Origin: a virus
Taxonomy: Duplodnaviria; Caudoviricetes
Reading direction: 5' to 3' (one strand)
Length of the DNA stretch: 44,096 nucleotides
Virus record (IMG/VR): IMGVR_UViG_3300037461_000433
Coordinates: 1-44,096 of that record
Part shown: positions 21,595-29,655 of the stretch, in pieces
How positions within the stretch are numbered: the first letter of the stretch is position 1
Layout: each line of letters begins with the position of its first letter
Position numbers and translations under genes: made by a program
The notes under the pieces: model-generated
What the model was told of the DNA's origin: nothing
Database searches by the model: none
What the model saw: only the letters and a program-made list of their open reading frames with translations

Positions 21595-22023
21595 ATTTAT
21601 TTTTCTTTTTTTAGTATACTATATTATAATAGAATTATTCCTTTTCGCTATTTGTTATAGAGATTCGCGGGGGTGGTCGGCGCGGTGTGAGAGTTAAGAA
21701 TGTTTTCAGCGCGCAGAACTTCCTCCCCCTTTGGGTCGCCTGGGGGGCCTGGATATTCTATTCGCTGATTAGAATATTTATTTATATAGAGCCGGCCCGA
21801 TACAGGGTCATGGGTACACGTACGCGCCTGATGTATGGGTACAAGGTGAGGGCATGATCTCCGCGCGAGGTATAACAAATAGAGAATATACGGCGTGGCT
21901 TGACATTAGAGCGACGATTGACAAATAGCGAATGGTATCGCATGGGGTAAATTGAGCATAGCAAAAATGGAATATAGTGAATTTACCGTCGGACGGCCCG
22001 ACGACAAACCGATAATCGCAAAA

Positions 22024-22134
22024 TGTAAAATGTATATATGTATGTATGTATACCCTTTTTCCTATATAGTATATAAAAAATAATAAAAGTATAGGGCATA
22101 CAAAATATACATCTATACACATATACATTTTACA
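22024..22134. repeat. 29-bp imperfect inverted repeat (26/29) built from TATAC units around an AT-rich spacer; candidate origin or packaging site
   Basis: 22024-22052 versus 22106-22134, inside the ~930-bp noncoding region. Confidence 0.6.
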
Positions 22135-22352: not shown

Positions 22353-22380
22353 TTGACAAATAGCGAATAAATGCTATACT
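22353..22380 (+). promoter_or_regulatory. Strong early sigma70 promoter TTGACA-16-TATACT with extended -10 TG and A-tracts upstream
   Basis: Read directly. It overlaps the ORF-track ATG at 22371, which is therefore unlikely to be the real start. Confidence 0.8.
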
Positions 22381-22427
22381 TTTACTGTCCGGACAGATAC
22401 CACAACGCCGGACAGAAATGGGGATAT

Positions 22428-23009
22428 ATGGACTTCAACCGAATCAAAGGCCAAGAACACGCAAAGCGTGGCCTCGAAATTGCACTCGCCGGAGGGCATA
22501 GTGTTTTGTTAGTTTCACCACCACAAATAGACACGGAACGCTTGACAAAGGCCACAAGGGAGATAAATTCCTTGTTATCAATCCGCACAATGACACCTTG
22601 CCCATGCGGATATTTCACTGACCCTAAACACGAATGTACTTGTACGCCGGAGGATATTCACAAACATTTGGCACTTGAGGCCAAAAACGGCACGGCGGAC
22701 ATTTGCCTCGAGGTGCCTCGATTAAACACTGAAATGTTATCAGATAAACGCAGGGGAGAGGCTTCCGCCGTAGTTATTGAACGTATAAAACAAGCACAGA
22801 GCCGAGAAACACCCACAACGTGCGACAAAGAGGCCGACGAGTTGCTAAAGTTGGCTATATTAGAGCTTGGCATATCTTCCCACGCTTATGATAAAATTAT
22901 CCGCGTCGCCGGCACGATAGCCCAGCTTGACGATAAAGCGATAATCGAGGCACACCACATATCCGAGGCGATAAGCTATAGAAGTCTAGACCGCAATTTA
23001 TGGGGTTAA
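22428..23009 (+). CDS. Truncated ComM/YifB (Mg-chelatase-related) homologue lacking ATPase motifs
   Basis: IKGQEHAKRGLEIALAGGH, MTPCPCGY...CTC, AYDKIIRVAGTIAQL, HISEAISYRSLDR match ComM. Walker A is degenerate and the Walker B region is absent. Confidence 0.88.
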   Translation: MDFNRIKGQEHAKRGLEIALAGGHSVLLVSPPQIDTERLTKATREINSLLSIRTMTPCPCGYFTDPKHECTCTPEDIHKHLALEAKNGTADICLEVPRLNTEMLSDKRRGEASAVVIERIKQAQSRETPTTCDKEADELLKLAILELGISSHAYDKIIRVAGTIAQLDDKAIIEAHHISEAISYRSLDRNLWG

Positions 23010-23019
23010 ACACCTAACA

Positions 23020-23082
23020 GGCCGAAACGCCGGAGGCTTCATCTCTGGCGTATAGCGGTATAATTCCGCTACTGATGAGGCC
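23020..23082 (+). ncRNA. Hammerhead ribozyme, type II (HH1); predicted cleavage after A23052 (GUA)
   Basis: GGCC-GAAA-CGCCGGAG/CUCUGGCG-UA-UAGCGG/CCGCUA-CUGAUGA-GGCC: complete core and three stems. Confidence 0.93.
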
Positions 23083-23115
23083 AGAAGCCTTACAATATGG
23101 GGAGGGTATCAAAAT

Positions 23116-23379
23116 ATGGACGTAGCAGAGTTAAAAATAGAAGTATCGAGGCTTCACAAGCTTGACGGCGCAGGGGCGACTAAGGCGTTTGCAGATGTAG
23201 CGATTGCCGACGCCTTTGTTATTAAGGGATTGCGTATAATAGAGGGTAAAGACGGCTTATTCGTATCAATGCCGAGGGAGGAAGGCAAAGATGGCAAATG
23301 GTATAGTACCGTTATACCACTAAAGCGTGAAGTCAAAGACGAAATTGAAAAAGTCGTATTAGAGGTATACGGCGGATAA
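23116..23379 (+). CDS. spoVG: SpoVG-family nucleic-acid-binding protein
   Basis: KAFADVAIADAFVIKGLRIIEGKDGLFVSMP...DGKW...VLEVY. GGAGG RBS. Confidence 0.9.
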   Translation: MDVAELKIEVSRLHKLDGAGATKAFADVAIADAFVIKGLRIIEGKDGLFVSMPREEGKDGKWYSTVIPLKREVKDEIEKVVLEVYGG

Positions 23380-23386
23380 TACAAGA

Positions 23387-23459
23387 GGCCGAAATAATCC
23401 CGGCCGGGATAAACGGCCGGGATTATATATCGGGTACAATACCCGGTACTGACGAGGCC
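23387..23459 (+). ncRNA. Hammerhead ribozyme, type II (HH2); predicted cleavage after A23427 (AUA)
   Basis: GGCC-GAAA, perfect 12-bp stem III, UA, 9-bp stem I, CUGACGA-GGCC. Confidence 0.93.
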
Positions 23460-23495
23460 AGAAGCCCGGTTAATATATAGAGGAGGGGAAGCGAT

Positions 23496-24161
23496 ATGGA
23501 CTACGAAAAGCAGAGGGAAGTGGAACACGCGAGGAACGCCGAGATCCGCGCGAAGATCGAAAAGGCCGGGGAGATATTGAAATTCAAGGCCGAAAAGCCG
23601 GACGAGAACTCCAAATTTGATTGCCGGGTATACCTTAATAATGAGGCCGGGGAAAAGCTGTATATCTATTTTTCGGCCGGATATGGTAATAAACGCGTGA
23701 ATGTTTCCGGGGTATACCCACGGAACGCGGACGGAAGTTATGCCGGGGACGTCTACTATACCCTAGAGGAACGCGCAAAAGGTATCGGACAGGCAAATTA
23801 CGGACAAGTACCACACCCGACAATCACGATCAGCCCGGACAAAACGCCGGAGCAAATCGCCAGGGACATCGAAAAGCGGTTTTTGCCGGACTATCGCGAT
23901 TACCGCGCGCGCGTTCAAGCCGTCGTTGACGCGCATAACGATTATGAATCGACGACAGCCGCATCATTGTTGGCGGTAAAAGGCGCGCAGTTGACCGAAT
24001 ACGAAGCGCGCGAGCGTAAATTCTCGGCGTATGCCGTGCCGGAGGAGTACTCCGGCGCCAGGTATGAAGTAAAAGCAAGCCAGAAAGAGATCGATATAGA
24101 TATTCACAATATCACCATTGACCAAGCGCGCGCTATAATCGCGCTTATAACGAAGAAATAA
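23496..24161 (+). CDS. Early hypothetical protein (221 aa) flanked by HH2 and HH3
   Basis: ORF with GAGGAGG RBS. Its stop lies 3 nt before HH3. Confidence 0.8.
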   Translation: MDYEKQREVEHARNAEIRAKIEKAGEILKFKAEKPDENSKFDCRVYLNNEAGEKLYIYFSAGYGNKRVNVSGVYPRNADGSYAGDVYYTLEERAKGIGQANYGQVPHPTITISPDKTPEQIARDIEKRFLPDYRDYRARVQAVVDAHNDYESTTAASLLAVKGAQLTEYEARERKFSAYAVPEEYSGARYEVKASQKEIDIDIHNITIDQARAIIALITKK

Positions 24162-24164
24162 AGA

Positions 24165-24229
24165 GGCCGAAACGGCGCACGCCGGGAGGACGCGCGCCGT
24201 CTGGGCGTTATGCGCCCATTGACAAGGCC
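24165..24229 (+). ncRNA. Hammerhead ribozyme, type II (HH3), U3-A8 core variant; predicted cleavage after C24201 (GUC)
   Basis: GGCC-GAAA-CGGCGC/GCGCCG-UC-UGGGCG/CGCCCA-UUGACAA-GGCC. Confidence 0.85.
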
Positions 24230-24248
24230 AAAAGGAGGTGATCAGATC

Positions 24249-24371
24249 ATGGCAACGCTATTATATAGGATGATCGAAATATTATCCGGCCAGTACACCG
24301 GACGGCGGTTAATCGCCTATAAGATAGCGCAACGCGTCAAGATGTTTTTGTTAATATGGATCATAAAATAG
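24249..24371 (+). CDS. 40-aa small protein (MATLLYRMIE...FLLIWIIK), below the ORF-track cutoff
   Basis: Perfect AAGGAGGTGA RBS directly after HH3. Fills the gap to the next gene. Confidence 0.65.
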   Translation: MATLLYRMIEILSGQYTGRRLIAYKIAQRVKMFLLIWIIK

Positions 24372-25997: not shown

Positions 25998-26026
25998 TTG
26001 ACAAATAAAGAAAGGTAAGGTATACT
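25998..26026 (+). promoter_or_regulatory. Sigma70 promoter TTGACA-17-TATACT for the replication block
   Basis: Read directly. Confidence 0.75.
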
Positions 26027-28900: not shown

Positions 28901-28931
28901 GTAGGGGAGACAATGCTACGGGAGGGTAGAG

Positions 28932-29084: not shown

Positions 29085-29103
29085 CCAATGCTACGGGAGG
29101 GAT

Positions 29104-29277: not shown

Positions 29278-29280
29278 CCA

Positions 29281-29523
29281 ATGCTACGGGATAAGATAGC
29301 GGAGATAATAGATAAATATTATTATCCGATAGACTGTAATCATAAGGCAGGAAGTCTTGGTATTTCTGACGAAATAATCTCGCTCATTATAGCGGAGGCG
29401 GTGCCAGAGGAGAAACAGGGCATAACTCATCATGGAGGAAGGCAAGACCCTTATTCGCTTACTGACCACGAGAAGATAGGACACAATTTGTGCAGGGCGA
29501 AGATGATGGAGGCGTTGGGGTGA
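29281..29523 (+). CDS. 80-aa hypothetical protein starting at the ATG inside repeat 3
   Basis: ORF track; GGGAG upstream. Confidence 0.7.
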   Translation: MLRDKIAEIIDKYYYPIDCNHKAGSLGISDEIISLIIAEAVPEEKQGITHHGGRQDPYSLTDHEKIGHNLCRAKMMEALG

Positions 29524-29615: not shown

Positions 29616-29655
29616 CAAATGGAAGATAACCAATGCTACGGGAGGGTAGTAAGGC

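Follow-up and report, generated by a model that had tools for sequence, protein, structure and literature searches.

Three type II hammerhead ribozyme folds in consecutive gene gaps of a tailed phage operon and their possible role in splitting the operon message

What three hammerhead ribozyme folds, placed in three consecutive gaps between the genes of one operon, might do for a phage is the question raised by the genome examined here (IMG/VR record IMGVR_UViG_3300037461_000433), the whole 44,096 nt of which is referred to as the window. A preliminary description of the folds had proposed that they cut the first transcript of the phage into single-gene mRNAs without host enzymes. The record is rated complete and is that of a tailed phage (Duplodnaviria; Caudoviricetes), and in Pfam and PHROG profile searches the minus strand was found to carry most of the genes for capsid, portal, terminase and tail, and the plus strand those for a primase, a helicase, an SSB and a DNA polymerase A. 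The 46 ORFs of the window scanned with profiles included no gene for an RNA polymerase. A single contig from one DNA sequencing run spans the window with two differences, both outside the ribozymes, though as this run may be the source of the window DNA the agreement is not independent support.

The operon, which is labelled early from its position only, is preceded by a sigma-70-like promoter (TTGACA, 16 nt, TG-TATACT; coordinates 22353–22380, plus strand) with an extended -10 and 11 of 12 consensus positions, called by consensus match only, and its transcript is likely to start near 22387. Gene 1 (22428–23009, plus strand, as are all the genes that follow) encodes a short YifB/ComM-like protein of the Mg-chelatase family (193 aa) that consists of N- and C-terminal parts only, matching PF01078 (E 1.6e-14; residues 2–34) and PF13335 (E 6.4e-13). 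Gene 2 (23116–23379; RBS at 23099–23106) encodes SpoVG (87 aa; PF04026, E 1.2e-19), and gene 3 (ORF221; 23496–24161; RBS at 23480–23488) a 221-aa protein with no assigned function, which belongs to no Pfam or PHROG family and matches unnamed, largely viral clusters. Several small ORFs follow gene 3, beginning with gene 4 (24249–24371; RBS AGGAGGUGA at 24233–24241), a 40-aa ORF that is the first of the remaining polycistron and also has no Pfam or PHROG family. Relatives of ORF221 or of the YifB-like protein were not found in IMG/VR.

An internally shortened YifB/ComM-like gene was observed near spoVG in two different phages, the window (22428–23009) and phage contig L128 (5980–6657), where the gene is 51% identical to gene 1, and such a gene is perhaps a dominant-negative or repurposed version of a host recombination helicase. 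Since spoVG and the short yifB gene occur together on L128 with no hammerhead, neither of these genes needs one.

Other repeats were also found in the window. A TTGACAAATAGCGAA box occurs four times, at 21644–21658 on the minus strand and at 21918–21932, 22353–22367 and 25998–26012 on the plus strand (chance mean 0.10), in a divergent control region and at promoter-like sites, and is a candidate shared promoter or operator. A TA/CA-rich 29-nt inverted repeat with 90% complementarity (22024–22134) lies in the long gene-free stretch between divergent operons and is a candidate origin or genome end. Four exact plus-strand copies of CAATGCTACGGGA (28911–28923, 29086–29098, 29279–29291 and 29631–29643; chance mean 0.08) each continue into the following small gene's RBS or start, and are a second kind of gene-boundary repeat, possibly a cassette or a translational control site.

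Both strands of the window were searched with a type II hammerhead descriptor (GAAA, stem III, UH, stem I, CUGANGA or UUGANAA, stem II), which found exactly three matches, all on the plus strand and starting at 23020, 23387 and 24165. These are the three complete folds of the preliminary description, and in 100 dinucleotide shuffles of the window there were no strict matches and a mean of 0.01 loose matches (largest 1). A conserved A was found one base 5' of stem II in each case (23019, 23386 and 24164), and the boundaries first given therefore need to be extended by one base. Hammerhead 1 (23019–23082) has a GGCC stem II (23020–23023/23079–23082) followed by GAAA, stem III at 23028–23050, GUA, stem I at 23053–23071 with U at position 1.7, and the core strand CUGAUGA at 23072–23078. 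Hammerhead 2 (23386–23459) has stem III at 23395–23425, AUA, a long stem I at 23428–23448 with U at 1.8 and not 1.7, and CUGACGA at 23449–23455. Hammerhead 3 (24164–24229) has stem III at 24173–24199, GUC, stem I at 24202–24218 with U1.7, and the core variant UUGACAA at 24219–24225, in which a compensatory U3-A8 takes the place of C3-G8. Cleavage is predicted after 23052 (GUA), 23427 (AUA) and 24201 (GUC), in agreement with the RNA 5' ends expected earlier at 23053, 23428 and 24202.

The hammerhead core (C3-U4-G5-A6-N7-G8-A9, G12-A13-A14, A15.1-U16.1 and H17) is complete in all three copies, with U3-A8 in copy 3, as are the three helices around it with G10.1-C11.1 closing stem II, and in each the topology is that of type II, loops closing stems I and III and stem II being open. 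Consecutive pairs in stems II, III and I number 4, 9 and 6 in copy 1, 4, 12 and 9 in copy 2, and 4, 6 and 7 in copy 3. Folding z-scores were -3.7, -5.8 and -3.2 for copies 1, 2 and 3, none of 200 shuffles being as stable. The GGCC begins 10, 7 and 3 nt after a stop codon, and the end of stem II is separated from the next start codon by 33, 36 and 19 nt that include a purine-rich RBS, so the 3–10 nt spacing and the RBS after each fold were correctly described. The other strand is without GAAA, ruling out an antisense hammerhead. No type I, II or III hammerhead was found in the later gaps up to the promoter-like site at 25998, nor any of type I or III anywhere in the window, and "one per gene boundary" thus describes the first three gaps and not those that follow. 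The locus falls within the clustered phage hammerheads, in which at least two sense-strand hammerheads flank single genes or short blocks in a phage.

A 24-nt stretch is 92% identical between copies 1 and 2, and it is likely from their sequences that they arose by duplication, stems I and III then diverging while staying paired; a MAFFT alignment of all three was of no help for the stems. The view that the stems indicate selection on structure and not recent duplication was thus overstated, though they do differ between copies and remain paired. Copy 2 departs from the family in its longer stem I, AUA site and U at 1.8, and may cleave more slowly.

When compared with the Rfam type II model (RF02276, Hammerhead_II), copies 2 and 3 aligned over the whole model but at 25.2 bits (E 1.4e-4 in this genome) and 15.5 bits, below the gathering score of 37 bits, and copy 1 was not listed. 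The window copies share topology and core with RF02276, whereas a 4-bp stem II and a putative A-U1.7 contact stand in place of a short stem II with a pseudoknot, and they were filed as type II by topology and not as members of RF02276. Most type II hammerheads, though not all, are described as having a pseudoknot in which loop I forms at least four pairs with the tail immediately 3' of stem II (PMC3088659). In the window copies, the best complement to loop I forms 3–5 pairs including wobble, 13–18 nt downstream, and none is adjacent to stem II. An A(L2.4)-U1.7 Hoogsteen pair has been described after O'Rourke et al. (PMC11875169), and by analogy it is likely that contact between U1.7 and the A before stem II replaces the usual pseudoknot. 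The U3-A8 core is a natural covariation described as active (PMC3088659), and was seen in none of 188 unique viral-locus hammerheads, only the first of the two scans described below having allowed it.

A scan of IMG/VR with an exact pattern gave 127 loci from 11 of the 64 parts of the collection, from which about 770 stored stretches are estimated, and 103 of its 161 matches passed the strict descriptor. A bulge-tolerant descriptor returned 109 unique rows, compared with 2 matches in one shuffled copy of 488 kb, and removal of the three from the window and three with a 2-bp stem II left a family set that also numbers 103. The A directly before stem II was present in 102 of these 103 relatives and U1.7 in 91, neither position being fixed by the search pattern, and 10 of the other 12 were bulged with U at 1.8. 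The window copies follow this distribution, with the A in all three, U1.7 in copies 1 and 3 and U at 1.8 in copy 2. Among the 102 relatives with enough upstream sequence, the fold starts between -3 and 15 nt from a sense stop codon in 88, as against 7.6% at random positions, and in 47 the stop codon overlaps or touches stem II, or supplies or touches the conserved A. An RBS and ORF follow in 80 of 106 cases, and the downstream genes are small and mostly unnamed, with any PHROG match in 15 of 62 and a named function in 2.

No locus carried hammerheads on both strands. In the 48 contigs for which at least 4 kb was fetched, 12 contained between two and nine copies and 36 a single copy. One 67.6-kb contig (L012–L014) was observed to carry an array of nine, all of type II with almost the same stems and each in a gene gap of its own. 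No type II hammerhead was found in 3 spoVG phage loci, 80 spoVG genome loci, 68 yifB metagenome loci or 30 pattern loci from the phylum Omnitrophota, and matches to a loose hammerhead pattern over 301 Omnitrophota genomes proved to be noise.

A further feature of the family is a tail complementary to the catalytic core, defined in this analysis as an N'UCAG able to pair with CUGAN and lying in the 20 nt that follow stem II. It was found in 44 of the 103 relatives, compared with 6 further downstream and 1 upstream, and in these 44 the base at N7 and its tail partner were C:G in 28, U:A in 14, A:U in 1 and U:U in 1. In a second scan the tail was required, with N7 (C or U) and its partner (A or G) left free and stem II left open. 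This pattern, for which about 1600 stored IMG/VR stretches are estimated, gave 99 hammerheads among 128 unique matches. Stem II takes many different sequences among the 99, of which 94 keep the A in front of it and 90 keep U1.7; about two thirds to three quarters of sampled pattern matches fold as hammerheads. Of 78 new hammerheads, 51 have the tail after stem II, with 20 C:G, 26 U:A, 4 U:G and 1 C:A (p 2.5e-9), whereas the 29 matches that are not hammerheads have 15 U:A, 7 U:G, 4 C:A and 3 C:G. Covariation persisted with one sequence for each of 57 clusters (p 2e-10), and in the four clusters that hold both N7 states every member covaries. In the N'UCAG relatives, the predicted median probability of stem II falls from 0.99 to 0.01 when the tail is included, the tail hairpin and the active fold being mutually exclusive. 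In the other 27 of the 78, the core-complementary stretch was observed to overlap the 3' strand of stem II (GAUCAG or GGUCAG), an overlap that in L142, L145, L152, L154, L175, L190 and others gives one strand two exclusive partners.

The N'UCAG tail is absent from copies 1 and 2 of the window, and in copy 3 a UCAG is present but would leave N7 in a C:A mismatch. An alternative tail, GGC-CAGAA-GCC, occurs in copies 1 and 2 and not in copy 3. In copy 1 the predicted competing hairpin (GAGGC/GCCUU; 23077–23091, plus strand; -7.4 kcal/mol) would take the 3' strand of stem II, lowering the stem II probability from 0.99 to 0.09, but as 98 of 1000 tail shuffles were as stable it is not significant alone. 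In copy 2 (GGC-CAGAA-GCC; 23456–23469, plus strand), where CCGG would also be able to take the 5' GGCC, the probability falls from 0.99 to 0.04, with 34 of 1000 tail shuffles as stable. In the 59 relatives without N'UCAG, tail pairing was not above that in shuffles (25 of 200 reached the mean), and the wider view first taken, of back-pairing in almost every tail (91 of 106, compared with 60 in shuffles), was dropped, the signal being confined to the 44 N'UCAG members. A DNA operator palindrome was also ruled out for the tail, the spacing varying from 0 to 11 nt and U:G exceeding C:A. The core-complementary tail is therefore solid for the family and only suggestive for the window copies. It was not found in the open full-text literature searched, including the accessible part of PMC3088659; a short-string search of the supplementary files of PMC3088659 also gave no match, though the alignment dataset or figures there may hold the tail unremarked.

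Genome loci match the window SpoVG at 70–81% identity, with 17 among the top 18 carrying the label Omnitrophota, and on the basis of this one gene the host is probably a member of that phylum. RNA enzymes were sought in 37 Omnitrophota genomes at least 80% complete from the order of the five SpoVG-nearest genomes tested. In this probable host order, RNase E/G was found in 36 of 37 genomes, RtcB in 33 and SpoVG in 35, whereas full-length RNase III over the cut-off and RNase J were each found in none of these incomplete genomes, three partial matches to the RNase III catalytic domain being recorded. The idea of processing without host enzymes fits the RNase III result. In the phylum sample, RNase III is present in 81 of 151 genomes. 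Several RtcB matches in the genomes of the order were observed in open frames of about 900–1000 aa, which may be inteins or fusions. Agrobacterium, Azorhizobium and Clostridium have RNase III. Arrays of hammerheads are described in these genera also (PMC3088659), so the absence of RNase III is not a general reason for arrays.

The explanation that fits these observations best, and which is on the whole probable, is that the three folds self-cleave during or soon after transcription and so split the operon message into separate pieces. In this scheme, of which we infer the cleavage, the transcription start, the stability and the purpose, host RNA polymerase would start near 22387, and each fold would close once its last GGCC leaves the polymerase, with the U1.7-A Hoogsteen contact standing in for the pseudoknot. 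Cutting would give pieces of about 666 nt (yifB-like), 375 nt (spoVG) and 774 nt (ORF221) and a polycistronic rest, the 4-bp stem II allowing the cleavage products to part. Processing into single-gene mRNAs is accordingly retained as the best reading with a narrower scope, as only spoVG and ORF221 would become single-gene messages. Each upstream piece would carry a cyclic phosphate after a terminal stem III hairpin, and each downstream piece would have its 5'-OH at the foot of stem I. Behind stem I, copies 1 and 2 would form a second hairpin, masking what remains of the core strand and keeping the pieces from being joined again. Where a host has RNase E/G but lacks RNase J, such RNA ends would be slow to decay, and each gene would for this reason gain its own stability, as well as its own translation start, uncoupled from the preceding gene. 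The 5'-end route of RNase E is reported to be weak on 5'-OH RNA, and direct entry to bypass 5' ends (PMC4191395). The arrangement would be a natural counterpart of the RiboJ insulator.

In favour of cleavage, the folds, the core, the placement between stop codon and RBS and the family-wide conservation were all observed. Triple hammerhead arrays are described as cleaving in vitro in three tandem arrangements, and one of them in E. coli (PMC3088659), and a phage hammerhead site is described as coinciding with a mapped transcript end. Against it, copies 1 and 2 with their tails are mostly outside the active fold in nearest-neighbour folding, a method that ignores tertiary stabilisation, the active fold lying 1.1 and 1.7 kcal/mol above the minimum, respectively. 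For copy 3 the minimum-energy fold is the active fold. In the accessible text of PMC3088659, 4 of 18 consensus hammerheads are given as inactive.

Alternatively, the folds might be attenuator-like switches in which cutting depends on whether or when the upstream gene is translated. Given the size assumed for the ribosome footprint, a ribosome stopping at the end of the upstream gene would hide the A-GGCC-GAAA strand, leaving the core or the stem II strand to be captured by the 3' tail. The closeness of stop codons to the folds (within 15 nt in 88 of 102 relatives, and at stem II in 47) is as such gating would have it but may reflect genome compaction, and the covarying core-complementary tail, seen in 44 of 103 relatives and replicated in 51 further sequences and 57 clusters, is explained equally well as a fold of the product after cutting. 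In addition, the window copies are without the canonical tail, their own hairpins giving p values of 0.10, 0.03 and 0.20 for copies 1, 2 and 3, and the 59 relatives without N'UCAG are no better than shuffles. Gating is hence doubtful, and the same holds for its extension, in which the pieces released could further circularise as single-gene mRNAs in a host with RtcB and without RNase III and RNase J. RtcB ligates 5'-OH to 2',3'-cyclic phosphate ends. That RtcB, or a chimeric hammerhead, ligates the excised 375-nt spoVG and 774-nt ORF221 pieces into circular single-gene mRNAs is improbable, even with RtcB in 33 of 37 genomes and a palindromic GGCC stem II in all copies from which the piece ends can in principle rebuild a full hammerhead, as spliced or circular products were looked for by Perreault et al. 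2011 and, in the accessible text, none were found (PMC3088659). In modelled junctions the tail hairpin also beats stem II, and a refolded closed junction would cut again.

Little more can be said for a decay timer, in which cleavage would sever the first genes from the rest and shorten their expression. The precedent is glmS, where cleavage is described as leading to degradation, and engineered ribozymes can lower expression. RNase J drives glmS mRNA decay, and it was found in 0 of 37 genomes of the probable host order, while both new ends would be hairpin-capped, which makes this proposal unlikely too. It is very unlikely that the ribozyme-RBS unit is a mobile cassette boundary at which short shared stretches allow gene swaps, cleavage being incidental or selfish. 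The flanked genes are indeed small, unrelated and mostly unnamed (15 of 62 with a PHROG match, and a function named for 2), the 24-nt stretch is common to copies 1 and 2, and spoVG and the yifB-like gene look host-derived, but efficient recombination would call for longer shared stretches and less diverged stems, and the retention of catalytic and tertiary positions and of a compensatory core swap points to selection on RNA activity. Copy 3 could also be a degenerate fold, with its TTGACA serving as the -35 box of a promoter, a reading that would fit both the -35 consensus and the lack of U3-A8 in 188 viral-locus hammerheads (of which only the first scan could have revealed it). No promoter-like site was called there, and with stems, GUC, the A before stem II and U1.7 intact and an active minimum-energy fold, this is scarcely credible.

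The T7 early mRNA offers a familiar parallel, host RNase III cutting one transcript into gene-sized messages with terminal hairpins. There a protein enzyme leaves a 5'-phosphate and a 3'-OH, whereas in the window ribozymes are predicted to cut, and full-length RNase III was not detected in the probable host order. The proposal of self-processing is plausible but is not new, having already been published with experiments by Perreault et al. 2011, who found hammerheads in prophages on either side of single genes or short blocks and suggested that they process transcripts into operon- or single-gene mRNAs (PMC3088659). The window resembles the clusters in the accessible part of that paper in having several sense-strand hammerheads between small variable phage genes, in its triple array, and in the type II and U3-A8 forms. 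It differs in being a free tailed phage with a probable Omnitrophota host, and in that all of its copies are type II with one palindromic 4-bp stem II and no loop I pseudoknot. Neither the stop-codon abutment nor the core-complementary tail of the relatives is mentioned in that part of the paper. RiboJ, as described in PMC6206723, likewise places a hairpin and then an RBS behind its hammerhead, gives the message a hairpin at its 5' end and raises mRNA about twofold, but is synthetic, derived from sTRSV and placed after a promoter, whereas the window copies lie between genes. Ribosome termination structures are also stable folds right after a stop codon that insulate the next gene from re-initiation, though unlike hammerheads they are described as non-catalytic and without sequence conservation (PMC7518266). 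A further paper (PMC13725137) deals with eukaryotic RNA viruses.

The role of phage hammerhead clusters is still called open in the accessible text of reviews (PMC6765202, PMC6155905). The locus leaves this role unsettled but makes the question testable, through the host nuclease set and the covarying hairpin of relatives. That hairpin suggests an off state under selection, with a fold formed after cutting as an equal explanation. In the probable host, both the T7 route through RNase III and the glmS decay route through RNase J appear closed, and RtcB is present. The hammerhead family is large, lies below the Rfam threshold and offers natural insulator parts.
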